IMG/VR virus record: IMGVR_UViG_3300027751_000014
DNA length: 64,000 nt
Direction: 5' to 3' (one strand)
DNA from: an uncultured virus (IMG/VR IMGVR_UViG_3300027751_000014)
Taxonomy: Duplodnaviria > Heunggongvirae > Uroviricota > Caudoviricetes
Shown: one piece after another, positions 9,615 through 36,860 of the stretch
Layout of the letters: each line of letters starts with the position of its first letter
Numbering within the stretch: the stretch's first letter is position 1
The notes under the pieces: model-generated
The model's database searches: none
Told to the model about the DNA's origin: nothing
What the model saw: only the letters and a program-made list of their open reading frames with translations
Position numbers and translations under genes: made by a program

Positions 9615-9763
9615 TCCCAACAAAAACAAGCACTTACAAAAAGTGCAATAAGATCAAGAAGTTACAAGGCAAGAAAAGTGTTGACAATAGCGTTTTATGG
9701 TGCTATTATACACATATATTGAGTAACTAGATAAATAAATTTACAGAAATATTGATTTAGGGG

Positions 9764-9792
9764 TTGACAAGTAGGTAAATAGAGTATATAAT
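9764..9792 (+). promoter_or_regulatory. Sigma70 promoter of the tRNA operon (a second one at 9681-9709)
   Basis: TTGACA-17-TATAAT. Confidence 0.8.
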
Positions 9793-9849
9793 ACGTACTT
9801 ACTTAGATAACTAAACAGATTTTTAACTAACAAGGAACAGGCTTAGAAA

Positions 9850-10008
9850 ATGATTACGACATTGACAATTTGTAGTATAGCAATATTATTGCTGGCACTC
9901 AAATCATGGCATAGTCAAGCCTCGATGTTGAATACCGTCCCCGCATCCTTTACACGCGGATATGATATTGAACAGACGACAAAGGCTTCCTTGTTTAAGG
10001 ACTTTTAA
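9850..10008 (+). CDS. Putative attenuator leader peptide (52 aa, all 20 amino acids)
   Basis: MITTLTICSIAILLLALKSWHSQASMLNTVPASFTRGYDIEQTTKASLFKDF*; overlaps antiterminator strand 9984-9994. Confidence 0.65.
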   Translation: MITTLTICSIAILLLALKSWHSQASMLNTVPASFTRGYDIEQTTKASLFKDF

Positions 10009-10039
10009 GCGGAAACGCAAAAAGAATTTTTACACAAGG

Positions 10040-10063
10040 AAGCCGCTAAAAAGCGGCTTTTTT
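10040..10063 (+). terminator. Intrinsic terminator (attenuator) upstream of the tRNA array
   Basis: AAGCCGCT-AAAA-AGCGGCTT then T-run; left arm is alternatively paired by GGCTTCCTTGT 9984-9994. Confidence 0.8.
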
Positions 10064-10313
10064 GTTGATGTAAAGAATAAGGGTTATAGTTAGATTGCAC
10101 GTGGACTTCGGTCCCCCAACTACTATAACGTAACTCGCTAAAGAGGTGGTAATCTTTAGCGCCAGACACAAGGGTAATTGAACCGTAAAGTCGGTCCCCG
10201 TAAAGAAAAACCAAATTTTAGCTTTTATAAGCAAACCGCAGTATGCCGTCGGGATTCAAATAACGGCATACATTTATATGTGCATTGGTAACAGTGTATA
10301 TATAAATGACAAT

Positions 10314-10387
10314 GGGGGTATAATTCAGTGGTAGAATAACTGGCTCTTAACCAGCTTACTGGAGTTCGATTCTCCGTACCCCTACCA
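10314..10387 (+). tRNA. tRNA-Lys(CTT)
   Basis: Cloverleaf, loop CTCTTAA, CCA. Confidence 0.85.
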
Positions 10388-10391
10388 ATTT

Positions 10392-10466
10392 GCCTTTGAA
10401 ACATTTAAGGATGATGCCCGGCCTTGTAAGTCGGAGAACGCGGTTCGATTCCGTGCTGAGGCTCCA
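10392..10466 (+). tRNA. tRNA-Thr(TGT)
   Basis: Loop CTTGTAA, GTTCGATT, CCA. Confidence 0.8.
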
Positions 10467-10555
10467 AATTCATCTACGAGGCTACGCTCGTCTTATCCCC
10501 AACGGATAAGTGTTATGGGACACCCTAACAAGAAAACATGCGTAGAACAAATTAT

Positions 10556-10633
10556 TGTCTCTGAGGCGCCAAGGTGGCAACCGCTTCGCTGTTAACGAAG
10601 AATAGACAGGTTCGATTCCTGTAGAGACAGCCA
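10556..10633 (+). tRNA. tRNA-Asn(GTT)
   Basis: Loop CTGTTAA, GCCA. Confidence 0.8.
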
Positions 10634-10639
10634 AACATT

Positions 10640-10714
10640 GGGGGATGGGCAGGGCACCCAGAGAATCCTTGCAAGATTCTAGCTTGATCGGTTCGAGTCC
10701 GATATTCTCCACCA
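10640..10714 (+). tRNA. tRNA-Ala(TGC)
   Basis: Loop CTTGCAA, G3-U70, ACCA. Confidence 0.8.
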
Positions 10715-10866
10715 AATGACGAGGTGAACTGCATTAGCCAGCAGGTGTACTCGTACAATGTAGGGAAGCGTAAGCGACTATGGCCTTCTAGTCCCTACCA
10801 CAAAAGTACGCAGAGCAGTAAGTGGCACTTACTGTGAGTATGATTGTGAGGGAGGCCACGATTTAT

Positions 10867-10954
10867 GAACTGGTATGCAAACTGGCGAAGCAGACAGACT
10901 TTCAATCTGTTACCCGAAAGGGCCCTGCGGGTTCGAACCCCGTCCAGTTCTCCA
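10867..10954 (+). tRNA. tRNA with TTC (Glu) anticodon and long variable arm
   Basis: ACAGA-CTTTCAA-TCTGT, extra arm CCCGAAAGGG, TCCA. Confidence 0.75.
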
Positions 10955-10961
10955 AATAAAT

Positions 10962-11036
10962 GCTCCCATCGAATAGTGGTTAGTTCGTGAGGTTCTCAAC
11001 CTCAAAACAGGGGTTCGATCCCCCTTGGGAGTACCA
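10962..11036 (+). tRNA. tRNA-Glu(CTC)
   Basis: Loop TTCTCAA, ACCA. Confidence 0.85.
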
Positions 11037-11127
11037 AGCAGTGTGGCGTAGGCCACGTCACATACACCGAGAGGGGTGCCTGCATAGGCCATGTAGGATC
11101 GGTTGAAAAAAGTCTCCACCAAACAAT

Positions 11128-11204
11128 TGCAGAGTGGGGGAGTGGTCGTCCCCGGTTGGCTCATAACCATCAGATCGTAGGTTCGAATCCTACCTCCGCT
11201 ACCA
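11128..11204 (+). tRNA. tRNA-Met(CAT), initiator-like
   Basis: Loop CTCATAA, 1:72 mismatch, ACCA. Confidence 0.75.
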
Positions 11205-11206
11205 AA

Positions 11207-11384
11207 TTTGTAAATAGTTAGACGCAGTTGATGAGTAGACGCAATCGGGCTTCTCCCGGTGTGGGGAAGAATCGCGCAGTAGGGGTCAACGAAGAATGGC
11301 ATTGAGAAAGATGAGACTCACGCTAGGTAATGCTAAGTAGATCGAATCAATCCACGTTAGTCCATGCTAACTATTTACAAACCA
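11207..11384 (+). ncRNA. Unknown stem-bounded RNA ending in CCA
   Basis: 15-bp terminal inverted repeat TTTGTAAATAGTTAG/CTAACTATTTACAAA then CCA. Confidence 0.55.
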
Positions 11385-11390
11385 AACAAT

Positions 11391-11468
11391 GGGCGGCTGA
11401 TGGGAATTGGCATACCTGACGGGCTTAGAACTCGTCGCTTCTCGGTTCGAGTCCGAGGTCGCCTACCA
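11391..11468 (+). tRNA. tRNA-Leu(TAG), short variable loop
   Basis: Loop CTTAGAA, ACCA. Confidence 0.8.
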
Positions 11469-11673
11469 ATCAATGGGGTGGATCTAGATAAGAGCGTTCT
11501 GCAGAACGTGATGCTATTTCCGAGATGCGATGCATACGCGCGGAATGGTCAAGGGTTCAAGTCCCTTGCCGCCCCTGCCACTTTTATCGTTGATTTCACC
11601 CTGAAGGTGAAAATAATCGAAGTAGCCCTACAAAGGTGAAAAGGTACTGGAGCACCAGCAACGACGATTTTAT

Positions 11674-11744
11674 GCTCCGGCTCTTGAAGAGGCGCGGCTT
11701 TTACAAGGCTGCTGAAGACAGTTTGATTCTGTCACGGAGTACCA
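11674..11744 (+). tRNA. tRNA-Val(TAC), degenerate
   Basis: Loop TTTACAA, weak stems, ACCA. Confidence 0.55.
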
Positions 11745-11826
11745 AATATGTCCCGGACTGTTGTAGCAAGTCGGATTTGAGGCCGAATGTGGGCGAGTTA
11801 GATTCTCGTTAGGGGCACCAATCAAT

Positions 11827-11902
11827 GCCACTGTAGGCCTCTGGGTAGGTCAACTCGTTGTCTGCGAGAACAAGGAGGGTTCGATTCCCTTCAGTGGCGC
11901 CA
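11827..11902 (+). tRNA. tRNA-Asp(GTC), atypical loop
   Basis: Loop TTGTCTG, GCCA. Confidence 0.75.
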
Positions 11903-12066
11903 ATTTCTAGAAACGTGAGAGGGTGGCTTACTGGTAGCTAACTCACGCAAATCAACACTCACAAGCATGATCATACACTTGTATACAAATGCAGATTGGA
12001 TGTTAGTATCGCCCCGTGGGGGTATTGAGCGAGCGGGAATCATCCGAAAAAACATTCCTAGCCAAT

Positions 12067-12140
12067 GGGGGTATAATTCAGTGGTAGAATAGCTGGCTTT
12101 TAACCAGTCCACCGGAGTTCGATTCTCCGTGCCCCTACCA
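12067..12140 (+). tRNA. tRNA-Lys(TTT)
   Basis: Loop CTTTTAA; paralog of 10314. Confidence 0.85.
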
Positions 12141-12280
12141 ATTTCAATGGCATCTCCCCCGGGGAGCAAACCTGGATGCAATGATCCGTGGGGAGATGTG
12201 ACCAAATTTCTCATGTTAGGTACCTAGTTGGATTGAACTTCCGGCGGGTTGATAATAGTAAAGCCGAGCTAGATTTTAAT

Positions 12281-12351
12281 GCTCCATGCCCTTGGGGGAA
12301 CGCAAGTCTCCAAAATTTGCAGGCGCGGTTCGAATCCGTGATGGAGTGCCA
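12281..12351 (+). tRNA. tRNA-Trp(CCA)
   Basis: Loop CTCCAAA, short D arm, GCCA. Confidence 0.75.
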
Positions 12352-12534
12352 ATTTTTGACCAAACGGCAATGCGGTCAAAGAAAAGAAGGGGAGTCTCAG
12401 AACAGAGGTGTTGCCGCACCACTAAGTATGAGGCAGATCATTCGTCTAGTCAGGCTCAGGACAACCGCGTTGAGCGGTGAACATAGGTTCAAATCCTATA
12501 TGGTCGTTCCCCAGATTTTCTTTTATAGTTTTAT

Positions 12535-12609
12535 GCGTCTAAGCTCGAGGTGAGTCGCCAGCCTTCCAAGCTGTTGCAGAGTGGATTTCGATTATCCCTA
12601 GACGCTCCA
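12535..12609 (+). tRNA. tRNA-Gly(TCC)
   Basis: Loop CTTCCAA, TCCA. Confidence 0.75.
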
Positions 12610-12613
12610 AATT

Positions 12614-12716
12614 CTTGCTGTTAATGTAATGGTAGCATAGCAACCTCCCCAGGTTGAGTCCTTACTGGGCTCTTTATGGCAAATGCATGAGTGGTTCGAT
12701 TCCACAGGCAAGTCCA
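12614..12716 (+). tRNA. tRNA-Gly-like with 8-nt CCCC anticodon loop and expanded variable region
   Basis: CAAC-CTCCCCAG-GTTG, U73 CCA. Confidence 0.55.
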
Positions 12717-12723
12717 ATTTTAT

Positions 12724-12795
12724 GTCTAGGTGGTCAGGGACTCCGTCGGTCTGCAAAACCGCACGGTACGGGTTCGACTCCCGTCCTAGACTCCA
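12724..12795 (+). tRNA. tRNA-Cys(GCA)
   Basis: Loop CTGCAAA, TCCA. Confidence 0.8.
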
Positions 12796-12804
12796 ATTTT
12801 CAAT

Positions 12805-12882
12805 GGTGTAGGTATCATAACTGGATAATGATACTCCCTGTGAAGGAGTCCTATGCGGGTTCGAATCCCGTTCTACACCCCA
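12805..12882 (+). tRNA. tRNA-His(GTG)
   Basis: G-1, loop CTGTGAA, CCCA. Confidence 0.85.
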
Positions 12883-12888
12883 AACAAT

Positions 12889-12966
12889 GGGCGGCTGATG
12901 GGAATTGGCATACCTAGTGGACTCAAAATTCACTGTCTCTCGGTTCGAGTCCGAGGTCGCCTACCA
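12889..12966 (+). tRNA. tRNA-Leu(CAA), short variable loop
   Basis: Loop CTCAAAA, ACCA. Confidence 0.8.
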
Positions 12967-12972
12967 ATTTAT

Positions 12973-13056
12973 GGTTCATTATACCGTTAAGGACACGGGG
13001 AAGTCTGTAAAACTTTCGCTTCGGCAGTCTAGGATCGTTACCTAGGTGAACCACCA
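12973..13056 (+). tRNA. tRNA-Tyr(GTA)
   Basis: Loop CTGTAAA, variable arm, T-loop ATCGTTA. Confidence 0.8.
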
Positions 13057-13061
13057 AATAA

Positions 13062-13135
13062 GCCTCTTTAGTTCAATGGGAGAACAGTGAGCTGATAACT
13101 CACAAACGGTGGATCGTAACCATCAAGAGGCACCA
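13062..13135 (+). tRNA. tRNA-Ile(GAT)
   Basis: Loop CTGATAA, T-loop ATCGTAA. Confidence 0.8.
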
Positions 13136-13229
13136 TTTTTGTACACAGCCTTTACTAGCTAGAAGGTAGTGGACTATAAGGTGTTCACCTAAAAACGGTT
13201 CAATTCCGTGTGTACAGATTTATTACAAT

Positions 13230-13304
13230 GCTCCTCTCTTCTAACTGGCAAGAAACTTGGCCGATTACCGAGTAATGGCGGTTCAACCCCGTCGGGGAGT
13301 ACCA
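13230..13304 (+). tRNA. tRNA with GAT anticodon, atypical (C33, U37)
   Basis: CTTGG-CCGATTA-CCGAG, ACCA. Confidence 0.6.
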
Positions 13305-13431
13305 AACAATGGCGCAGATGCTGTCCAATCGTAAAAGACAGGTTGAAGATGCATGGATCCGGAACACGCTAGTAACTTCAATGCTTTTATGCTAAGTGGG
13401 TTAAACTCCCATCCTGTGACCACCAATTTTG

Positions 13432-13590
13432 AGAGTCCTTACAGGGACGTACTGTCGGTGAACGATTCCGACTTTGACGGTAGAAACGGAGATAGGGGTG
13501 GTTCCCGTGTATCTGTTCTATAACGTGACATTAATACATCATTGACCAGATGTTGGCGGTGCAAACCCGTTGCGTCCCTGTAAGGACTTT
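13432..13590 (+). ncRNA. Unknown structured RNA with 18-bp closing stem
   Basis: AGAGTCCTTACAGGGACG/CGTCCCTGTAAGGACTTT enclosing several hairpins. Confidence 0.55.
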
Positions 13591-13675
13591 TAGATTTTCG
13601 ATATAGCCAACTGAAAGAATGTGGCTTGCCAGCGACCGCCCCAACACTGGAGTAACAACTAGGGGCCCAAACAAT

Positions 13676-13753
13676 GCTGCTCTGGCAGAGATGGTTCTAT
13701 TGCGCTAGTCTGAAGAACTAGACATCGGGGTTCGATTCCCTGGGGCAGCACCA
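13676..13753 (+). tRNA. tRNA-Phe(GAA)
   Basis: Loop CTGAAGA, ACCA. Confidence 0.85.
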
Positions 13754-13759
13754 ATTTAC

Positions 13760-13838
13760 GGCCTATGGGACTGCTTGGTGTGGTCACTTGCCTGTCACGC
13801 AAGATATCAGAGGGGTTCGATTCCCCTATAGGTCGCCA
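13760..13838 (+). tRNA. tRNA-Asp(GTC)
   Basis: Loop CTGTCAC, GCCA. Confidence 0.85.
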
Positions 13839-13844
13839 AACAAT

Positions 13845-13931
13845 GGTAGGTTGCCAGAGTGGTAATGGAGCAGTTTGCTAAACTGTCGCTGAGAAATCGG
13901 CACATAGGTTCGAATCCTATACCTACCGCCA
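13845..13931 (+). tRNA. tRNA-Ser(GCT)
   Basis: Loop TTGCTAA, long arm, GCCA. Confidence 0.9.
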
Positions 13932-13936
13932 AACAT

Positions 13937-14012
13937 GCCCCTATAACTCAGTGGACAGAGTGTCACGCTTCGAACGTGATGGCCGGAGGTTCGAATCCTT
14001 CTAGGGGCGCCA
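13937..14012 (+). tRNA. tRNA-Arg(TCG)
   Basis: Loop CTTCGAA, GCCA. Confidence 0.9.
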
Positions 14013-14018
14013 AATAAT

Positions 14019-14092
14019 TCTCCCTTCGTCTAGCGGAAGGATAGCAGACTCTGAATCTGTTGACCGAGGTTCGAATCCTTGAGGGAGAGCCA
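14019..14092 (+). tRNA. tRNA-Gln(CTG)
   Basis: Loop CTCTGAA, GCCA. Confidence 0.9.
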
Positions 14093-14099
14093 ATTTTAT

Positions 14100-14175
14100 C
14101 TCTGATTAGCTGAGGCTGGTTTAGCATCGCGTTTGGGGCGCGGGGACGTAGGTTCGAGTCCTACATCGGAGACCA
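14100..14175 (+). tRNA. tRNA-Pro(TGG)
   Basis: Loop TTTGGGG, ACCA. Confidence 0.85.
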
Positions 14176-14182
14176 ATTTTAT

Positions 14183-14255
14183 ACCCAGGCCAATGGATGG
14201 AGGTAACGCTACGAACGTTGTCCGCGTGGAGGTTCGAATCCTCTCCTGGGTGCCA
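14183..14255 (+). tRNA. tRNA-Arg(ACG)
   Basis: Loop CTACGAA, reduced D arm, GCCA. Confidence 0.8.
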
Positions 14256-14381
14256 AACAGTGTTTCGATGCGGCTGGCGTTTGAGTCAGTTGCATAGGAC
14301 ACCTAGTTGTAGAATGACTCAGCATTACTAATTAGTAAGCTTGAAAGGACCCTTTCACATTCTACAACGGATCTAATTAAT

Positions 14382-14474
14382 GCCCTCATAGTGTAAAGGT
14401 AGCACCCGAGTTTTATACACTCGTTTCCGGCAGATTACCGGGTAGTGTAGGTTCGAATCCTGCTGAGGGTACCA
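14382..14474 (+). tRNA. tRNA with TAT (Ile) anticodon and long variable arm
   Basis: CGAGT-TTTATAC-ACTCG, arm CCGG..CCGG, ACCA. Confidence 0.75.
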
Positions 14475-14567
14475 GTTTTGACCAAAGAGAGCGAATGGAA
14501 CGCCTGTGGCTATTAGCCGCGAACGCCGGTTCCCCTTTTCGAAGAGGGTGCGGTCAAATTTAACAAT

Positions 14568-14644
14568 GGTACGTAATGCAAACTGGCAGAGCAGCTTGTC
14601 TCATAAATAAGTGATTCTCGGTTCAAGTCCGAGGCGTACTACCA
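14568..14644 (+). tRNA. tRNA-Met/Ile2(CAT)
   Basis: Loop CTCATAA, ACCA. Confidence 0.8.
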
Positions 14645-14728
14645 AATAATCCCGCAGTGAAACTGTGTATGCGCACACAGTGATACTGAACAATGTAGGT
14701 TCAATTCCTACCTGCGGGGCCAAACAAT

Positions 14729-14803
14729 TCACGGATCTTCTAATGGCAGGAAACCTGGCTTTGAACTAGGATAACGTAGGTTCGACCCCTACTCCGTGAT
14801 CCA
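14729..14803 (+). tRNA. tRNA-Gln(TTG)
   Basis: Loop CTTTGAA, TCCA. Confidence 0.8.
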
Positions 14804-14811
14804 ATTTCTTT

Positions 14812-14888
14812 CTGTGCGTAGCTCAGTCTGGTAGAGCTCCTGGCCTGGAACCAGGAGGCCGCAGGTTCAAATCCTGCCGCGCAGACCA
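14812..14888 (+). tRNA. tRNA-Pro(TGG), C33/A37 variant
   Basis: CCTGG-CCTGGAA-CCAGG, C1-G72, ACCA. Confidence 0.8.
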
Positions 14889-14893
14889 AACAT

Positions 14894-14970
14894 GCCCATG
14901 TAGCAGAGTTGGTTCATGCATCTCCTTGGTAAGGAGAAGCACGTCGGTTCGAATCCGTCCATGGGCTCCA
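14894..14970 (+). tRNA. tRNA-Thr(GGT)
   Basis: Loop TTGGTAA, TCCA. Confidence 0.85.
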
Positions 14971-14974
14971 AAAT

Positions 14975-15063
14975 GGAAGATGTCCGGCTGGTCGAGGACG
15001 CAGTCTTGAAAACTGTTGGGCTATTCATATGCTTCGGGGGTTCGAGTCCCTCATCTTCCGCCA
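14975..15063 (+). tRNA. tRNA-Ser(TGA)
   Basis: Loop CTTGAAA, long arm, GCCA. Confidence 0.85.
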
Positions 15064-15066
15064 AAA

Positions 15067-15186
15067 TCAGGATAACAACAACGCACCTAGTGTGGGGCTT
15101 AGTGGTTCAAATCCACGCGCATCGGAAGGTGCGTGTCAACATTACTCAGTTGTGGGTGTTGAGGTTCGATTCCTCGTCCTGACCCA
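15067..15186 (+). ncRNA. tRNA-like RNA with two T-arms
   Basis: Acceptor TCAGGAT/GTCCTGA+CCCA; GTGGTTCAAATCCAC and GAGGTTCGATTCCTC. Confidence 0.5.
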
Positions 15187-15192
15187 ATTTAT

Positions 15193-15267
15193 GCTCCGTT
15201 CGTCTATCGGTCAGGACACCGGGTTTTCATCCCGGCAAGAGGGGTTCGACTCCCCTACGGAGTACCA
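15193..15267 (+). tRNA. tRNA-Glu(TTC)
   Basis: Loop TTTTCAT, ACCA. Confidence 0.9.
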
Positions 15268-15453
15268 AATCAATTCTCACAGTATGGCCGGTTTTCGCGA
15301 ACCGTGCTGCATAGTGGAGCAATGTAGGTTCGACCCCTACCTGTGAGAGCCCAACGCGGCCCCGTGAGGTCACTAGTCAGGTTGACAATCCTGGCAGGTC
15401 GGGGTTCGAGCTGAGGCAAAAGATCTCAATATGCCAAAGCACCAATTTTCAAT

Positions 15454-15525
15454 GCCCTCGCCGATGGAACGGAACAGCGGTTTCTACCCGCAGTATTGTA
15501 GGTTCGAATCCTACCGAGGGTGCCA
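15454..15525 (+). tRNA. tRNA-Arg(TCT)
   Basis: Loop TTTCTAC, GCCA. Confidence 0.8.
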
Positions 15526-15562
15526 ATTTATTCTTGCATTTTACGTGCAAGGAGCGTATAAT

Positions 15563-15985
15563 ATGACGATGCACATAGGTATGACAGGAACACGTAGCGG
15601 TATGACGCCCGAGCAAGCGCATACCTTCTACAATCTTTTAGAAAAATACAAAGGTGAGTGGTTCCACCACGGTGATTGCCAAGGTGCAGACGCTGAGGGA
15701 CACGACTTTGCGACAGAGCTTGGATACAAAACCCATGTTCACCCACCCATCAAAGATGAGGTACGTGCCTTCAAGCAAGGCACAACGCAAAGCGAGAATA
15801 AAGGCTATTTTGCGAGGAATCGTGACATAGTAGATGAGTCCGAAATCTTATTTGGCACGCCTGTGACCATGTTTGAGACACAAGGCGGTACTTGGTACAC
15901 AATAAATTACGCTAAGAAGAAAAACAAACCAATAATTATTGTGTTCCCCGACGGAACAACAGAAGAATTCAATTTGCCGAAGTAG
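15563..15985 (+). CDS. SLOG-superfamily-like nucleotide-binding protein
   Basis: IGMTGTR...HHGDCQGAD...ARNRDIVD...GGTWYTI; start corrected to lie after the tRNA. Confidence 0.65.
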   Translation: MTMHIGMTGTRSGMTPEQAHTFYNLLEKYKGEWFHHGDCQGADAEGHDFATELGYKTHVHPPIKDEVRAFKQGTTQSENKGYFARNRDIVDESEILFGTPVTMFETQGGTWYTINYAKKKNKPIIIVFPDGTTEEFNLPK

Positions 15986-16051
15986 CTTAGACGGTAGAGC
16001 AGCGCACTCGTAATGCGAAGGTCCGAGGTTCGATTCCTCGCTGCGGCACCA
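15976..16051 (+). tRNA. tRNA-Thr(CGT)
   Basis: Loop CTCGTAA, ACCA. Confidence 0.9.
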
Positions 16052-16104
16052 ATTTCAAGTAATCATAGATAAATATACTGATTACAACTTACGGAGGATT
16101 TGCT

Positions 16105-16251
16105 ATGGACGAGAAGACCATACACCTCTTGCTAAAGACTGCAAAAGGTAGAGAATTTTATTTCCGAGAGCTTGCGAAAGAAAAACGACAAGCTGAAAGC
16201 CTAAAGCAAATCAAGAAAAATTGGAAATGGAGTAACTTCTTTCCGAAATAA
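16105..16251 (+). CDS. 48-aa basic hypothetical protein
   Basis: GATAAATA 16068, SD GGAGG, MDEKTIHLLL. Confidence 0.55.
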   Translation: MDEKTIHLLLKTAKGREFYFRELAKEKRQAESLKQIKKNWKWSNFFPK

Positions 16252-16257
16252 CCCTTT

Positions 16258-16329
16258 GCCCTCACCGATGGAGCGGACACGAGTTTCCTAAACTTGTTTT
16301 TGTAGGTTCGAATCCTACTGAGGGCACCA
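16258..16329 (+). tRNA. tRNA-Arg(CCT)
   Basis: Loop TTCCTAA, ACCA. Confidence 0.8.
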
Positions 16330-16332
16330 CCC

Positions 16333-16384
16333 AATCTGCTTTCAAGCGCAGATTAACCGACTTAATCTGCTTTCAAGCGCAGAT
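16333..16384 (+). repeat. 21-bp direct repeat (two hairpins)
   Basis: AATCTGCTTTCAAGCGCAGAT x2. Confidence 0.85.
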
Positions 16385-16392
16385 AGAACCTT

Positions 16393-16602
16393 TATACATA
16401 CAAGTGATCGCTCTACGGAGAGGAAGCTCAGGACAGGCGCTTAGGCGTGGGAGGTATACGTTATACCGCATAAACCACGTATATACGCTTCAGCGTATAG
16501 CCTGCAACGCAAACAGCCCGAGGGGAACCGAAGCCTCTATGACGGCGGGTCGCGGCCAATAGATGAATGTCACATAAACAGAATCCTGGCTATGGATGTA
16601 TA
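16393..16602 (+). ncRNA. rnpB: RNase P RNA, minimal (~210 nt)
   Basis: GAGGAAGCTCAGGAC (CR-I), AGATGAATGTC (CR-IV), ACAGAATCCTGGCTA (CR-V); P4 CAGGA/TCCTG; P1 TATACAT/ATGTATA. Confidence 0.8.
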
Positions 16603-16607
16603 ATACT

Positions 16608-16695
16608 GCGAATATGATGGAATTGGTAGACTTGCAAGAATGAGAGTCTTGTGCTGTATCACAGCGTGTGGGTTCGAGTCCCACTATTCGCACCA
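16608..16695 (+). tRNA. tRNA-Leu(GAG)
   Basis: Loop ATGAGAG, long arm, ACCA. Confidence 0.85.
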
Positions 16696-16714
16696 AATTT
16701 AGATAAATACGTTT

Positions 16715-17074
16715 ATGCGTATTGATGAAGTAATTGTCCCGTTCCCAACAAAGAAAAGTAATATCACTGCTCGCGGTGATATACGAAAATCTGATGTGGT
16801 TGGTAAAACAGCAACAGGCCAATTAGTGTATAGTGATGAGTTGACTGGTCAACCATATATACGGAATAAGAAGGACGTACCATTTTTTGTAAATGACGCA
16901 TTTGATGTTCCGGATAACTATGACGACAACTACGATTTCCCAAAACAATGGGTAATTGTAGACGATAAGATGCGCGCCTTCGGTAAATTATATTCTGATA
17001 AAAAAGAAGCCGAACTAGATGCGCGTAGATATCGACAATGGCATCACAAAGAAGTCAACGTACAAGCAGTATAA
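16715..17074 (+). CDS. Hypothetical protein
   Basis: GATAAATA at 16702 just upstream; 119-aa ORF. Confidence 0.7.
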   Translation: MRIDEVIVPFPTKKSNITARGDIRKSDVVGKTATGQLVYSDELTGQPYIRNKKDVPFFVNDAFDVPDNYDDNYDFPKQWVIVDDKMRAFGKLYSDKKEAELDARRYRQWHHKEVNVQAV

Positions 17075-17084
17075 ACCAAACAAT

Positions 17085-17162
17085 GGGCGTCTGATGGGAA
17101 TTGGCATACCTGATGGACTTAAAATTCATCGTTTCTCGGTTCGAGTCCGAGGTCGCCTACCA
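17085..17162 (+). tRNA. tRNA-Leu(TAA), short variable loop
   Basis: Loop CTTAAAA, ACCA. Confidence 0.8.
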
Positions 17163-17164
17163 AA

Positions 17165-17827
17165 TTAAAGGTTAGTGAGATCCGCTAACGGGTCAATGAC
17201 AACGAGCTTCTGGTCAGAAGGTCGATACATGATATTACCTGGATGCATATCGTAGCTGCAAACACCAGTAGCACGGTTTTCTGCTGTTCGTAATGTTGCA
17301 ATGAATTTTCTACTACCTTTAGATTTTTTAAGCCATCGAGAAATGGCCACGTCTTCTGCAAGATCATCCTCGTCGACTATACCTTCTTTAACAAGACGGT
17401 GAAAAATACCCTGCCCCTGGAACCAATCTTCGTGTACATATAGATATGCAAGACCTATGAGGTCAGTTGTGTTCATTATTGCGTGGCGATTGAATGGCGC
17501 AAGTTTTTCGACAAGCGCAAGGAAGAATTTTTGTCCCTTACTACCTGTGTATTGTTGCATCCATTTAATATCTGGAAGGTGTGGGTTATTAGTAACACTT
17601 AACGCCCACTCTGCAAATCGCATCCAACAAACATCTTCCTTAGTAGAGAGTTTAATTACACGGTTGTAGCCTGGTCTTATAAAAACAGCACCAAAGCTGC
17701 CTGAACCTTTTTTCTGAAAACCGTTTGCACGTAACCAAGCCATTAACTGTTTTGGCGAAGTCCACTTTGTACGTAAAAGTGTGCGCTCGTCAAATATAGA
17801 GGCTTCAATTAGGTGTCGTATTAGCAT
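17165..17827 (-). CDS. Protein kinase, T7 gp0.7-like kinase domain
   Basis: GSGSFGAVF, RVIKL..ED, DMHPGNIM, VIDP; start MLIRH after GGTAAATA. Confidence 0.75.
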   Translation of the reverse strand: MLIRHLIEASIFDERTLLRTKWTSPKQLMAWLRANGFQKKGSGSFGAVFIRPGYNRVIKLSTKEDVCWMRFAEWALSVTNNPHLPDIKWMQQYTGSKGQKFFLALVEKLAPFNRHAIMNTTDLIGLAYLYVHEDWFQGQGIFHRLVKEGIVDEDDLAEDVAISRWLKKSKGSRKFIATLRTAENRATGVCSYDMHPGNIMYRPSDQKLVVIDPLADLTNL

Positions 17828-17846
17828 ACGTGTATTTACCATATAT

Positions 17847-17934
17847 GGAGAGTAAACTAAGCTGGGCTTAGGGCTGCCTCGAAAACAGTACGTGTCCTGA
17901 CGGGCATGCCGTTCGATTCGACTGCTCTCCGCCA
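17847..17934 (+). tRNA. tRNA-Ser(CGA)
   Basis: Loop CTCGAAA, long arm, GCCA. Confidence 0.75.
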
Positions 17935-17940
17935 AACAAT

Positions 17941-18029
17941 AGAAGATGATCCTTGATGGTGATGGGTCACGCCTGGAAAGCGTTGAGACTAGGTAACTGG
18001 TTGCGGTTCGACTCCGCCGTCTTCTGCCA
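17941..18029 (+). tRNA. tRNA-Ser(GGA)
   Basis: Loop CTGGAAA, long arm, GCCA. Confidence 0.75.
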
Positions 18030-18090
18030 ATTTTAGAGCTTGACTTTTATCCCAAGCCCTGTTATAATATGTTTATATTAGGAGAAGAAC

Positions 18091-18378
18091 ATGCCTTGGA
18101 ATTATCGTCTTTGCAAAGAAAAGGTAAGAGATGATGTTGGTGGTGAGCCAGTGTATTATTACTCTGTGCGCGAAGCATTTTTCAACCAAGATGGCAGTAT
18201 TTGGGCTATAGGTGGCGAAGCTAGCCTCGGATGCGATAAATATGCTACTGACACTGAGGAATGGGTGAAATCCGACCTTCAGCAAGATTTGGAACATCAG
18301 CGCCAAGCGTTTAGCCGCGCTGTCATTGATCTAGACACTATTGTTTATGCCGCCCAAGAGCAAGTTGTTGATTCATAA
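18091..18378 (+). CDS. Hypothetical protein
   Basis: SD AGGAG, MPWNYRL. Confidence 0.7.
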   Translation: MPWNYRLCKEKVRDDVGGEPVYYYSVREAFFNQDGSIWAIGGEASLGCDKYATDTEEWVKSDLQQDLEHQRQAFSRAVIDLDTIVYAAQEQVVDS

Positions 18379-18391
18379 GAGAATTTAGATG

Positions 18392-18470
18392 TTGACATCT
18401 TAGCAGAATGGTAGTATAATACTTGTATTGTTTGAGCAGATACTGAACACTAGGTCTGCAACGCTCTTTT
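18392..18470 (+). promoter_or_regulatory. Sigma70 promoter with boxA-like element
   Basis: TTGACA-17-TATAAT; CGCTCTTTT at 18462. Confidence 0.65.
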
Positions 18471-18561
18471 ATAATTTGGAAACGATTTATTTACATCTTG
18501 CACTACCATTAACAGATCACAGTATATTAATCTGCAATATTAACAACTGGAGGATTTGAAA

Positions 18562-18897
18562 ATGGGAATATTCTTAGAAGATTTTGGGAGTGTGGAAGAT
18601 GTATGCGGCAATTTCCAAATTGACGCAGTGAACGGTGAAATCTTATTCGCTTGGTATGGCGGCGGTGATTACGACGGATCAGCATTCGTGTTGTTTTCGC
18701 GTGATGGCGAGTTATACGAGGTGAACGGAAGTCATTGTTCGTGTTATGGCTTAGAGGGACAGTGGGATCCTGAGAAGACTTCTTTCGAGGAGTTGATGCA
18801 CAGAATTACTAAGGGAACTTTAGGTCAAGATACTTATTACAGCGGTGCTGTCTTCGGAGAGCAACTAGTAGAAGTATTGAACAAGTGGAAGGGGTAA
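18562..18897 (+). CDS. Conserved phage hypothetical protein
   Basis: SD GGAGG; YEVNGSHCSCYGLEGQW motif. Confidence 0.75.
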   Translation: MGIFLEDFGSVEDVCGNFQIDAVNGEILFAWYGGGDYDGSAFVLFSRDGELYEVNGSHCSCYGLEGQWDPEKTSFEELMHRITKGTLGQDTYYSGAVFGEQLVEVLNKWKG

Positions 18898-19780: not shown

Positions 19781-19825
19781 AATAAAGGTTGACAGTCCTG
19801 ATAAATACTGTTATAATGAATTATC

Positions 19826-22684: not shown

Positions 22685-22882
22685 ATGAGAGATAGCATGA
22701 CCACAATAATTAGCCCGTGTGTAAACGTCTGTGCAATGGATGAATATGAAATGTATTGCATTGGGTGTATGCGCACCTCAAAGGAGATAAGCGGCTGGTA
22801 TGGATACAGTGATGATGAACGGCGCACAAAGATGGAGCAAATCAAAACCCGCTCCTACGATGATGCAGAAGACAATCTGTAA
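22685..22882 (+). CDS. DUF1289-like Cys protein
   Basis: SPCVNVC...CIGCMRT..EI..W. Confidence 0.75.
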   Translation: MRDSMTTIISPCVNVCAMDEYEMYCIGCMRTSKEISGWYGYSDDERRTKMEQIKTRSYDDAEDNL

Positions 22883-23690
22883 GGACGTTGAATATACTGG
22901 CATAGGGCTACATAGCGGCATTAAAAATAAAATTATGCTGTCTCCAGCAGAACCGCATACAGGTATTGTATTCCGCTGTCCTACGCGCAACATTGAAATT
23001 CCAGCAACATGGAATAACGTAACAAACACAACACTGAATACCAAAATTGGTATTGGTGCTGCAGAGTTTATGCTTATTGAACATTTGATGAGCGCATTAC
23101 ACGGCTTAGAGATTGATAATGTAATTATTACGCTATGTGGCAACGAAGTCCCTATAGCAGACGGAAGCAGTTTGGAATGGGTAAAATTAATTGACCGCGC
23201 AGGTGTACAAATTCAATCCACACCGCGAAGGTATATACGAATCCTAAAAACAGTTTCCGTTACCGATGGCGACCGTTACGCCAAATTGCTACCCTCAGAC
23301 GTGAAGCGTTTTAGGATTAGCACAGAATTTGACGGCATTGGTTTACAAAAACTAAATATTATACTTAGTGAATCCTATTACCGAACCAACGTGGCATTTT
23401 GTAGGACGTTTGGTTATGCAGATGAGATTAACGATTTGGACGAAGCTGGTTTTGCGAAAGGCGCAGGCTTAGATAACGTGCTTGTAATGCACAGGAACGG
23501 AGCCCCCATTAACAAGCTACGTGCGACAGATGAGATCATCCAACATAAGTTGTTGGATGCGATTGGCGATTTATATTGCGCAGGCTCACAAATAATTGGC
23601 GAGTATGACGCACATAAACCAGGCCATAAACTAAACTGGTTACTGTTAGAGAAATTATTTTCCGACGATAGCAACTGGACATATATTTGA
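22860..23690 (+). CDS. lpxC: UDP-3-O-acyl-N-acetylglucosamine deacetylase
   Basis: QKTI..GIGLHSG, IEHLMSAL, EVPIADGSS, CRTFG, HKLLDAIGDL, KPGH. Confidence 0.9.
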   Translation: MMQKTICKDVEYTGIGLHSGIKNKIMLSPAEPHTGIVFRCPTRNIEIPATWNNVTNTTLNTKIGIGAAEFMLIEHLMSALHGLEIDNVIITLCGNEVPIADGSSLEWVKLIDRAGVQIQSTPRRYIRILKTVSVTDGDRYAKLLPSDVKRFRISTEFDGIGLQKLNIILSESYYRTNVAFCRTFGYADEINDLDEAGFAKGAGLDNVLVMHRNGAPINKLRATDEIIQHKLLDAIGDLYCAGSQIIGEYDAHKPGHKLNWLLLEKLFSDDSNWTYI

Positions 23691-23879: not shown

Positions 23880-24702
23880 TTTACGATAGTGCGGCATGGC
23901 GCCGATAAGCATCCGAAAGGATGTGAAAGCAGGAAGGCTAACACAACCTGCGCCAGCAATGGTCAACCCATGCAAGCCGAGGCTTAAACACCTTCATCCA
24001 AACGATGGAGTTAAACTAAGTAACTTGTGCTGGGAACAGGCATCCGAGGCCAACGGTGTAGGATGCTCTGCAAGGTGACACTTGCTACCAGAGTCAACAC
24101 GGGGAATTAGTAGAGCCAAAGGGTAGTTATATAGTCCGAGTTTTAGCAGACAAGGGCAGTATAGCAGTTTGAGAGTAGAGGGAAGGATCCTGAAACTTGA
24201 AAGACGGTCGAAAGTAGGTTTAGCGACCCAAACGACATTAGGCGTGTTGCATTTTGTAGCTCAAAAAGCTATGAAACAACAGGAGTGGCACGTCTTGGTT
24301 AGTTCTTAGTTTGCTCATGGTGAGCGACAGCTATATGAAGCTGTAGGAGAAGGTTCAAATCCTTCACTATATACCAAAAACGCAAAGACCGCTCCGAGGT
24401 TGTTTGAAAATAGCTTAATCCCTCACTCTTAGGAGAATGGGGGTTAACAGAAGCTCGCAAGGCGGACGTTAATTTGTGGAACGTTGCACGGTGTTCTTAG
24501 CAGAACTTTATAGCTCGCAAGGCTAACGGTAGACTGAACGCAGAAGTAAACAACCTGACGGTGTCACAGCAGACACCTTAAAAAACGCAGCTATGCTACT
24601 GGACATCCTTGAGGATGTGGATACGTTGGTAACGAAGCGGTTCGCCCCGTGACGGTACGCTAACAAAGGCAGTAGTACAAAAGGCTTAATCTCAACCTTT
24701 AT
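23880..24702 (+). ncRNA. GOLLD-like giant structured RNA with embedded tRNA-like element
   Basis: About 820 nt without a credible ORF; many GNRA hairpins (CTCGCAAGG x2), AGGCGTGTTG..CAAAA and terminal AAAGGCTTAATCTCAACCTTT; next to a tRNA array; family call from memory of motifs. Confidence 0.65.
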
Positions 24703-26964: not shown

Positions 26965-28272
26965 ATGAAAGACGTTGCGAACATCCTACGTGAGTTGAAA
27001 GCTGAATCTGGCGGCAACGCTAAGATCGACATTTTGCGCACCAACAAAGACAACGAACTTTTACAGTCCGTGTTTGTTGCTACCCTCGACCCGTACACCC
27101 AGTATTACCTGCGTAAAATCCCCGCATACAAAAACGTGTCTACAAAGTACACGCTGGAAGATGCACTGAAGGGATTGGAGAAACTGTCCAGCCGCGAAGT
27201 GACTGGTCACGCTGGTATTGCCCACCTCACCGATCTGCTCGAAAACCTCTCTGAGGACGATGCGTTTGTATTGGAGCGGGTCGTGAAGAAGAATTTGGAT
27301 TGTGGCGTACAGACCTCCACCGTAAACAAGGTGTGGAAGAACCTGATCGCTACCTACCCCTGCTTGCTTGCTAAAGGCAGCAACGACAAAAACCTGGCCT
27401 ACATCACCTTCCCCGCATACACGCAGAAGAAGGCTGATGGTATGCGAGTGAACGTATTTTATGAGAAGGGCAAGGTGTCCTTCCGCGGTCGCAGCGGTAA
27501 GACGATTGATTTGCTGGGCTACTTGGAGGATGATTTTGTTGCGCTGGGCAAGACATATGGCAAAGACATGGTGTTTGACGGCGAGCTGGTCTTGGTGAAG
27601 GACGGCAAGGTGCTTGTGCGCAGGATTGGCAACGGCATCCTCAACAAAGCGATCAAGGGCACCATCTCCGCAAAGGAAGCCGCAATGGTTCGCGCTGACC
27701 TTTGGGACGCTATTCCCCTCGCTGAATTCCGCAAAGGCAAGAGCAAGGAGACCTACAAGGATCGTTTTGAAACCTTTGTAGCGAACGTTGCCAAAGCCCC
27801 GCGTGATGGCTACATCGTCATTGAGACACGCACGGTAAATAACCTCGACGAGGCACAGGTCCATTTTGAGGAAATGCTTGCTGAAGGCGAGGAAGGCATT
27901 ATTTTGAAGAACATGACTGGCAAGTGGGAAAACAAACGCAGCAAGGACTTGGTCAAGATGAAGGCTGAGAAAGATGCGGATCTTGTGGTCGTGGATTGGC
28001 AGGAAGGCACTGGCAAGTTTGCCGGCATGATGGGCGCGTTGGTCTGTCAGACAAGCGATGGCAAAGTTGAAGTAAACATTGGCAGCGGCTACAGTGACGA
28101 ACAGCGTAAAGAATTTACAAAGGAAGCGATGATGGGTCGCATTGTTACGGTGCTGTATAACGAACGGATTGCGAGCAAAGCCCGCACAGACGTTGACAGT
28201 TTGTTCCTCCCGCGTTTTATTGAACTCCGCGAGGACAAGGACGAAGCTAATTCTGAGAAAGAGGTGAAGTGA
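26965..28272 (+). CDS. ATP-dependent DNA ligase (T4 gp30-like)
   Basis: KADGMR, FDGEL, EGIILK, LFLPRF; promoter 26908-26936. Confidence 0.95.
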   Translation: MKDVANILRELKAESGGNAKIDILRTNKDNELLQSVFVATLDPYTQYYLRKIPAYKNVSTKYTLEDALKGLEKLSSREVTGHAGIAHLTDLLENLSEDDAFVLERVVKKNLDCGVQTSTVNKVWKNLIATYPCLLAKGSNDKNLAYITFPAYTQKKADGMRVNVFYEKGKVSFRGRSGKTIDLLGYLEDDFVALGKTYGKDMVFDGELVLVKDGKVLVRRIGNGILNKAIKGTISAKEAAMVRADLWDAIPLAEFRKGKSKETYKDRFETFVANVAKAPRDGYIVIETRTVNNLDEAQVHFEEMLAEGEEGIILKNMTGKWENKRSKDLVKMKAEKDADLVVVDWQEGTGKFAGMMGALVCQTSDGKVEVNIGSGYSDEQRKEFTKEAMMGRIVTVLYNERIASKARTDVDSLFLPRFIELREDKDEANSEKEVK

Positions 28273-31409: not shown

Positions 31410-31846
31410 CGTGCTGCTGGATTGCAATAATATCCACGAAGGCCCAAAAGGCCAAAGTCCTCGACCTTTTAGTAGGTGACGGGGCAATGGTTTAATGAGT
31501 GATATGAAGTAGTAAGGTAAGTATTTTGGACGGGGGTTCGATTCCCCCCAGCTCCACCAAAAACGACCTGATAGCTTGTGTTTGTGGTCAGCCTTAGCGG
31601 GCAGAAGTGAGGCACAAGTGACTAGCTGGTGAAATTAGCCCGGTATGCGGTACAGGCCGTTTTTGATGGGGTTGACAGGTTTCGACAGGATATGGATATT
31701 ACTACAGACACTTCGTTTGGCAACGTAATTGCTACATAAAACAATCGACAATGATCGTTTTGTAATTGTAGGCGCTGTTCCGGCAGCTCTAGCAGCCTAA
31801 AAACCTGCCCTACCGAGCTTTAGTCAGGCTTGTTACCAAAGTGATA
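31410..31846 (+). ncRNA. ssrA: tmRNA, circularly permuted (two-piece); outer ends approximate
   Basis: Acceptor piece ends GGGGGTTCGATTCCCCC-CAGCTCC-ACCA (31559) upstream of coding piece starting GGGGTTG..TTCGAC (31668); G3-U70; tag DNDRFVIVGAVPAALAA* 31747-31800. Confidence 0.9.
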
Positions 31847-31847
31847 G

Positions 31848-31870
31848 AGAAAGGGCTTCGGCCCTTTCTT
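31848..31870 (+). terminator. Intrinsic terminator after tmRNA
   Basis: AGAAAGGGC-TTCG-GCCCTTTCT. Confidence 0.8.
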
Positions 31871-31970
31871 GCTATTCAGTAACCCTTTGATATATAAGAT
31901 GATTTTTATCTTGACTTTTGATGCTAAATATTATATAATACTGGTATAGAATAGGTAAAGGAGCAACAAG

Positions 31971-36591: not shown

Positions 36592-36860
36592 GTGAAAAAA
36601 CTTCAAAGAGTATTTTAGATGAGCTTGTGGTGAAAGCGCAAACTATTGGCGGAATTCAAGGTACAATGCACAACCCACGAAATGCTACACAGGTTGGTCA
36701 GATGGTAAAATCCTTGTCACTGGAAGACCGCGAATTACTAGCACAATTGACATCTGACGATTTGGAATGTATGCGCCCATTTGGTGGGTATCACCCAAGA
36801 CCCAACACCGTAGTTACACGTAAGCGGGATAAGGCTGTGACACTGAAAAAGGTGAAATAA
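36588..36860 (+). CDS. Hypothetical protein
   Basis: Coupled ORF. Confidence 0.6.
   Translation: MSEKTSKSILDELVVKAQTIGGIQGTMHNPRNATQVGQMVKSLSLEDRELLAQLTSDDLECMRPFGGYHPRPNTVVTRKRDKAVTLKKVK

Follow-up and report, generated by a model that had tools for sequence, protein, structure and literature searches.

The window analysed here is a stretch of 64,000 nucleotides (nt) from an uncultured virus (IMG/VR record IMGVR_UViG_3300027751_000014). Its source is an uncultured marine jumbo phage, and the stretch occurs in marine metagenomes according to a sequencing-run look-up. The nearest record (G001) is a 77-kilobase (kb) fragment of the same phage, which is rated 21% complete, begins at position 36724 of the window and does not contain the locus described here. 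The window carries a long array of transfer RNA (tRNA) genes, and this work is centred on the region at the head of that array, in which a short open reading frame (ORF) lies between two tandem promoters and an intrinsic terminator. The ORF encodes a leader peptide containing all 20 amino acids, and its last codons can pair with the 5' arm of the terminator. It is likely that this region is a leader-peptide transcription attenuator, placed at the head of the tRNA array, which senses translation by means of a leader that holds every amino acid.

The features of the locus are collected in Table 1, and the attenuator motifs have a single occurrence in the window. The promoters are followed by a box similar to a Shine-Dalgarno (SD) sequence (element 1), the leader ORF with element 2 among its last codons, elements 3 and 4, a structured RNA and the first tRNA gene, which is located 250 nt 3' of the terminator. 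An original prediction, made from the letters of the window, had already recognised the consensus sigma70 promoter P2, the ORF and the terminator, and all of them were found again. Promoter P1 and a promoter-like site within the ORF are additional to that description, as is element 1, which adds the classic 1:2 / 2:3 / 3:4 topology.

Table 1. Features at the head of the tRNA array (window coordinates)
Feature	Position	Strand	Basis
Promoter P1, TTGACA-17-TATTAT with TG	9681..9709	+	11/12 match
Promoter P2, TTGACA-17-TATAAT	9764..9792	+	12/12 match
Element 1, SD-like box ACAAGGAA, 13 nt before ATG	9830..9837	+	AC(A/G)AGGAA kept in 5/5 loci, flanks vary
Leader ORF, 52 codons + stop, all 20 amino acids	9850..10008	+	translation; homologues
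Element 2, GGCTTCCTTGT, codons Ala46-Ser-Leu, antiterminator 5' arm	9984..9994	+	invariant in 5/5 loci, not demanded by the search pattern
Antiterminator hairpin 2:3 with inner stem-loop (predicted)	9984..10044	+	-26.6 kcal/mol, z -7.6
Element 3, ACAAGGAAGCCGCT, common to antiterminator and terminator	10034..10047	+	pairs with 9984-9994 or 10052-10065 (repeats I1, I5)
Intrinsic terminator 3:4 (predicted), 8-bp GC-rich stem, AAAA loop, T-run	10040..10065	+	-19.7 kcal/mol, z -5.7
Conserved structured RNA, no family assigned	10099..10267	+	RNAalifold, five loci
tRNA array, first block, headed by tRNA-Lys(CTT)	10314..18029	+	ARAGORN and promoter scan

Relatives and conserved organisation

All the relatives of the locus come from uncultured phages. 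A related viral contig (L008) was found by means of a two-arm DNA pattern, another match of which (L007) was rejected as chance. Scanning a metagenome collection with an 18-mer across element 3 produced 21 loci. Five of them align with the entire region in blastn, two being identical to the window and three diverged (L047, L049 and L058). The other 16, together with six genome-contig matches of the same 18-mer, fit the pattern alone and were discarded. The window and the four diverged relatives constitute the five DNA loci compared throughout this work. A profile built with the five leader peptides detected small homologues in two protein collections and contributed 18 further peptides, so that 23 full-length peptides are available in total. 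Two sequences were set aside from these 23: P0005, with 73 residues and odd ends, which holds all 20 amino acids, and P0007, with 42 residues, which begins at an internal methionine of the family alignment and is without cysteine only. In the representative search, 11 of 23 matches were long proteins with several matched stretches and all of them were excluded; two of them, P0014 and P0019, were fetched and are repeat proteins.

Other searches returned little. Among GenBank phages there was no match to the DNA of the locus, to the 258-residue protein encoded upstream or to the leader peptide, save one chance match with E = 6, and three other family peptides gave nothing or only matches with E = 0.8 in an Erwinia phage. 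A single-sequence protein search with the leader peptide recovered the query itself only, and the leader peptide is without a match to the PHROGs families. Searches of viral contigs with the 258-residue protein and its alignment found the L008 contig only, and a 28-mer from the first tRNA had no matches. The peptide alignments A8 and A9, compared with viral and genome contigs, revealed no family locus; their sole matches, three Actinomycetota loci with 48% identity over 31 residues, are regarded as chance. Between the window and L008 the 258-residue protein shares only 36% identity and the 3' part of the leader is nearly identical, so the leader is much better kept than its neighbour.

The order of the features is the same in all five loci: promoters, element 1, ORF, elements 2, 3 and 4, structured RNA, tRNA-Lys(CTT) and more tRNA genes. 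Each of them has two tandem promoters, the invariant AC(A/G)AGGAA box, an ORF of 52-55 codons ending in GGCTTCCTTGT, a long hairpin closed by ACAAGGAAGCC, an overlapping terminator and a structured RNA of around 170-200 nt. The original prediction had proposed that a translated leader with all amino acids ends in an antiterminator which competes with a terminator before the tRNA genes; this arrangement receives comparative support from five of the five loci, with the restriction that the gate would reach the first block of the array at most.

A TTGAC..TATAAT-type site is found at the position of P1 in the five loci, and in P2 both GGTTGAC and the -10 sequence TATA.T are invariant (alignment A5). 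Transcription from P2 would start near position 9800. An A/T-rich box, (G)AGATAAATAA (9728-9739), is conserved between the two promoters in each of the five loci and may serve as an UP element or as a binding site for a protein. The promoter-like site within the ORF (TTGACA-16-TATTAT, 9862-9889, 11/12 match) is probably due to chance, because it is absent from the four relatives. Two RNA-library runs hold small shares of the region, and their contigs cover only 9630-9825 and 10621-10700, which makes them uninformative about transcript ends.

Composition and evolution of the leader peptide

The 52-residue leader contains all 20 amino acids, as the original prediction had indicated, with 19 different residues in the 24 positions from 18 to 41. 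The codon variety described there is also present: leucine is encoded by TTA, TTG, CTG and CTC, serine by AGT, TCA, TCG and TCC, both lysine and both glutamine codons are used, and ATA appears twice. The leucine total, which has to be corrected, is seven, and ten amino-acid types are present once only. In total, 34 different codons appear in the leader, and they engage 26 of the 31 anticodon species that the phage encodes; only 1.6% of 11,350 windows of 52 codons from long ORFs reach or exceed this number.

In the window alone, the presence of all 20 amino acids is a post-hoc observation and only slightly unusual, since the complete set is found in 2-4% of stretches of 52 residues: 3.7% of independent and identically distributed (iid) draws and 2.1% of 11,350 real windows of 52 residues. 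The same property is found in 5 of the 174 mechanical ORFs of 45-60 residues in this window. Stretches with 19 different residues in 24 positions are rarer, amounting to 3 of 47,071 six-frame windows here, but one such window is expected per 64 kb. It is the comparison with the relatives that makes the observation strong.

The 23 full-length peptides (48-60 residues) all contain the 20 amino acids, with identities of 38-61% to the window peptide, and in the five DNA loci the ORF is conserved together with its position before the tRNA array; the conserved leader with excess amino-acid diversity that the original prediction had suggested looking for in related phages is therefore present. In all 23 peptides the full set precedes the alanine codon that opens element 2, and in 18 of them it is complete at least four codons earlier; in the remaining five, only arginine or glutamate is missing at four codons upstream of element 2. 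The iid expectation of finding all 20 in 41-50 residues is 0.7-3%. The residues that complete the set change their location: most members have their single cysteine in TIC, whereas it belongs to YDCG in L008 and P0002 and to G(A)C in P0009, P0026 and P0032, and histidine is lost from WH in L058 and P0008, yet it appears elsewhere in both peptides. The probability that all members stay complete was calculated on a nearest-neighbour tree in which the residues identical to the parent are kept and the others are redrawn. Under these approximate models the joint probability is 10^-6.6 with the phage proteome as background, 10^-7.8 with the family background and 10^-7.7 with BLOSUM-conditioned replacement, and it is still around 10^-5 after dropping the few most sensitive edges.

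Several properties of the DNA are those of a translated frame. There are no stop codons in frame 0 and 2-5 in each of the other frames at every one of the five loci, and the gaps in the peptide-guided alignment are whole codons. At the same time, the differences among the five loci are flat over the codon positions (0.39, 0.34 and 0.42), and each pair of loci is separated by 16-28 non-synonymous and 5-10 synonymous codon changes. This pattern fits a frame that must be translated and in which most residues are free, unlike the evolution of a folded protein. Judging from the aligned sequences, the amino-acid composition is conserved and the sequence is not, which is an unusual comparative signal.

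An ordinary small early gene of the phage, with its own promoter and terminator, could also produce part of this picture. The peptide itself would then be functional, the hairpin would stabilise the 3' end of the transcript and the complete set of amino acids would be a by-product of a conserved sequence of high complexity. Large phages commonly possess small early genes under promoters of their own, the ORF is listed as a protein by gene callers, the islands TIC, WH, FGYD and ASLYKD are conserved, and the N-terminus of the window peptide is hydrophobic, with a maximum 19-residue Kyte-Doolittle mean of 1.97. This hydrophobic segment is not kept, since the other 22 of the 23 peptides reach 0.34-1.51, below the usual 1.6, and the idea of a membrane protein was rejected on this hydropathy measure, in which only the peptide of the window reaches 1.6 or more. 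Moreover, the identity of the residues drifts almost freely, all 20 amino acids are retained in 23 of 23 peptides while cysteine and histidine shift (joint probability about 1e-7), and PHROGs offers no family for the product. The best conserved codons, Ala-Ser-Leu-Tyr/Phe-Lys-Asp, coincide with the RNA arms and do not vary at synonymous sites, and the hairpin overlaps the stem of the terminator rather than adjoining it. A small gene of this kind is therefore considered improbable.

Predicted alternative pairings of the leader RNA

All the energies given here are predictions, and the mutually exclusive pairings 1:2, 2:3 and 3:4 (repeats I1, I5 and I9) are found in silico only. Element 1 repeats the beginning of element 3 and can pair with element 2 (inverted repeat I9); the 1:2 pairing is formed in 40 of the 40 cells of the five-locus comparison, with one change from A-U to G-U.

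The exact complementarity of 9984-9994 to 10034-10044, reported in the original prediction, defines the 2:3 pairing. The resulting 61-nt hairpin is clearly non-random, as none of 200 shuffles folds as well, and the stop codon of the ORF (10006-10008) is located inside it. The relatives have the same long hairpin with inner stems that differ by lineage (GCG/CGC, CGC/GCG or UCUGC/GCAGA), a stem being always present. The sequence AAGCC is common to the 2:3 and 3:4 pairings. The terminator stem is formed by 10040-10047 with 10052-10059 and belongs to a 14-bp helix from 10034 in which an A-tract pairs with the U-tract. A simple consensus terminator scan did not list the hairpin at 10040-10065, presumably because its stem-extension rule consumes the T-run; the terminator, previously placed at 10040-10063, is predicted to fold at -19.7 kcal/mol. 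In the five loci, 70 of the 70 cells of the terminator are paired.

When folding is followed in stages, the five loci behave in the same way: 1:2 is predicted with a probability of 0.90-0.95 before element 3 exists, and 2:3 is then predicted with a probability of 0.99. The stop codon is found 26-28 nt before element 3 in every locus, and with a ribosome placed on it the remaining RNA is predicted to fold into the terminator (-20 to -25 kcal/mol).

The conservation of the C-terminal half of the peptide, whose motif ends exactly at the antiterminator arm, could suggest a leader of the nascent-peptide or ligand arrest type (TnaC, SecM or Erm), in which some signal other than the supply of tRNA would make the ribosome stall at (F)GYD..ASL(Y/F)KD and the stall would set the RNA switch. 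The codons of ASLYKD are RNA arms, so that the conservation of this motif can be explained by constraint on the RNA. Besides, a ribosome stalled there would cover element 2 and favour termination instead of induction, and the retention of all 20 amino acids would be left unexplained. An arrest peptide is consequently very improbable at this locus.

Proposed mechanism

In the reading preferred here, that of a translation-sensing attenuator, the transcript would be started near 9800 by the two strong tandem promoters, and a ribosome would translate the 52-codon leader while the RNA polymerase proceeds. Element 2, in the last leader codons, can pair with element 3, which is itself the 5' arm of the terminator. 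A ribosome in step with the polymerase, once at the end of the ORF, would unwind element 2; hairpin 3:4 would then form and transcription would stop at about 10063-10067. A ribosome delayed upstream of element 2 would allow 2:3 to form first, no terminator would appear and the polymerase would read through into the structured RNA and the tRNA genes. Because the codons that precede element 2 cover all 20 amino acids and engage 26 of the 31 anticodons, a shortage of almost any charged tRNA should increase tRNA transcription, and the tRNAs produced would relieve the delay, resulting in a negative feedback on decoding capacity. Element 1 would pair with element 2 before element 3 exists and may in this way restrict the loading of ribosomes to the first moments of the transcript; alternatively, it may stabilise the terminated form. 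The inducible counter-defence purpose suggested in the original prediction is possible and purely hypothetical.

A more specific version of this mechanism is proposed tentatively and considered rather doubtful as a whole. Here the attenuator would be omnivalent and would work as a one-shot race between the pioneer ribosome and the RNA polymerase. As soon as transcription of the ORF is complete, the 1:2 pairing would shut off the ribosome-binding site, so that the pioneer ribosome alone would be timed, and this ribosome would have to decode every amino acid, using 26 of the 31 anticodon species, before the polymerase reaches the terminator. The array would be turned on by any gap in the supply of tRNAs, such as that left by the decay of host tRNAs after infection or by a host anticodon nuclease that cleaves a single tRNA, and it would thus act as an induced and self-limiting system of repair and counter-defence.

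Several points weigh against the attenuator. Only 5 of the 23 peptides have a known DNA context. The null models assume that the changed positions are drawn independently of each other, and their results depend on how the sequences were aligned; in addition, the peptide islands TIC, W(H), P, (F)GYD and ASL(Y/F)KD are not explained by composition alone. Six leader codons are without a phage tRNA, and 5 of the 31 phage anticodons are not engaged. The SD-like box AAGGA, which the original prediction had rightly described as weakly spaced, ends 13 nt before the ATG, whereas a distance of 6-8 nt is found in 19 of the 33 long ORFs of the window that have an SD; initiation on the leader may be poor because of this distance. 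The covariation expected for both helices is found in the terminator, where two pairs show compensatory changes, and not in the outer arms of 2:3, which are invariant in the five loci; this is accounted for by the invariance of arm 2 and by arm 3 being fixed by the search pattern. When the full leader is folded at equilibrium, the probability of 2:3 goes from 0.00 to 0.97 depending on the locus, and therefore the direction of the switch rests on kinetic reasoning. The gate would cover at most the first block of the array, and later tRNAs escape it, because there are strong internal promoters from 18040 onwards. Finally, translation of the leader, its coupling to the RNA polymerase, termination and read-through are inferred, as are the direction in which the switch works, the part played by element 1 and the physiological purpose.

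Some of these points would also be compatible with a constitutive and partly leaky terminator, or insulator, placed behind very strong promoters, in which the ORF and the hairpin would tune a fixed level of read-through, for instance by keeping a ribosome behind the polymerase, with no sensing of tRNA supply. Without such a device, the two consensus promoters immediately upstream would flood the array; terminator and antiterminator also come close to balance at equilibrium, and the SD spacing is poor. Nevertheless, such a device would need neither a frame kept open over 48-60 codons nor all 20 amino acids upstream of the arm in 23 of 23 peptides, and a stop codon held at 26-28 nt from element 3 would be equally needless, which makes a fixed leak quite improbable.

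Structured RNA, tRNA array and neighbouring genes

The structured RNA between the terminator and the first tRNA gene is present once in the window and at the same place in L008, L047, L049 and L058. Of the 35 pairs that RNAalifold predicts in it, 15 show compensatory changes, and its score is not reached by any of 500 shuffles. In the hairpin 10136-10143/10154-10161, seven of the eight pairs covary and the conserved loop contains GUGGUA. There is no Rfam match for this RNA, RNase P and T-box included. A 16-mer taken from it gave 23 loci, among which only the L008 contig is related by blastn, the others being chance matches. The UGGU of the loop is complementary to the 3' ACCA of tRNAs and might represent a second, direct layer of tRNA sensing.

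The original prediction had counted about 53 tRNA genes. The figure is closer to 47, with 45 tRNA genes and a transfer-messenger RNA (tmRNA) gene detected by ARAGORN and two additional tRNA-like matches in Rfam. The array covers 19 amino-acid types, and the first gene after the leader is tRNA-Lys(CTT) in five of the five loci. According to the promoter scan, the region from the terminator to 16575 is free of strong sigma70-type promoters, and strong internal promoters are located at 18040, 18392, 19789 and 23803. Three sigma70-type consensus promoters of the tRNA region, with 11/12, 12/12 and 12/12 matches (18040-18420 and 19789-19817), adjoin small protein genes, and the gene at 18556-18897, beside these promoters, matches a PHROG annotated as integrase.

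Other features accompany the array. A GOLLD RNA is found at its far end (24239-24698; 164 bits, threshold 150), and one tRNA-like Rfam match (24304-24373) lies inside it. The tmRNA gene is of the permuted type (31467-31891; Rfam tmRNA_permuted, 104.9 bits) and encodes the tag peptide DNDRFVIVGAVPAALAA according to ARAGORN. A full-length homologue of LpxC, the deacetylase of lipid A biosynthesis, is encoded among the tRNA genes (22800-23690; Pfam E 1.8e-82) and therefore indicates a Gram-negative host. An ATP-dependent DNA ligase is located at 26965-28272 and an M3 peptidase at 57835-59799. In the array of L049, ARAGORN reports a tRNA-like gene with the two-base anticodon "ca" at 640-709 on the minus strand.

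Comparison with known systems and implications

In its known forms, leader-peptide attenuation senses one amino acid or a few and controls biosynthetic genes. The classical leaders are trpL, hisL, leuL, thrL and pheL from the amino-acid operons of enterobacteria. The locus resembles the trp/his type in its short promoter-proximal ORF, in the 1:2, 2:3 and 3:4 segments, in a terminator directly before the regulated genes, with a GC-rich stem and a U-run, and in a stop codon placed so that the terminating ribosome covers segment 2. The ORF has a start codon and a ribosome-binding site, with poor spacing, between promoter and terminator. The tandem codons for a regulating amino acid are not present: there is no run of a single amino acid and all 20 types appear instead, in 48-60 codons compared with roughly 14-30 in the classical leaders. 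Unlike the trp/his type, segment 1 lies in the ribosome-binding region and not within the ORF, and the regulated genes, here in a phage, encode tRNAs instead of biosynthetic enzymes. The locus falls below every Rfam leader threshold; Trp_leader gives a weak match (24.4 bits, E 0.015, against a threshold of 41), followed by Phe_leader (19.9 against 55 bits) and Thr_leader (19 against 55 bits).

The closest topology is that of multivalent attenuation, found in the ilvGMEDA and ilvBN leaders, with Ile/Leu/Val codons, and in the thr leader, with Thr and Ile codons. Several amino acids are sensed by one leader with mixed codons in both cases, but the ilv and thr leaders respond to two or three amino acids with clustered codons, whereas all twenty are represented here, mostly in single copies. 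T-box riboswitches share with the locus a terminator/antiterminator switch tied to the status of tRNA and a position upstream of genes related to translation; they bind one uncharged tRNA directly and need no ORF. The identity with a T-box was excluded, because no covariance-model match was obtained with E up to 10 in 9650-10330 of the window or with E up to 5 in L047, L049 and L058. A full-text literature search found no account of leader-peptide control of tRNA genes or of a leader with all amino acids.

The locus looks like a classic attenuator that has been turned into a general gauge of decoding capacity and controls tRNA genes in a virus. The comparative signal, a composition that is kept while the sequence drifts, could be searched for elsewhere. 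If the proposed mechanism is true, it would provide a compact natural part of around 270 nt that reports the speed of translation of all amino acids and could be used as a biosensor. It would also mean that large phages regulate their tRNA arrays by feedback instead of expressing them constitutively, and it would connect the tRNA arrays of phages, in a concrete and testable way, with the host tRNA losses that accompany infection or defence.

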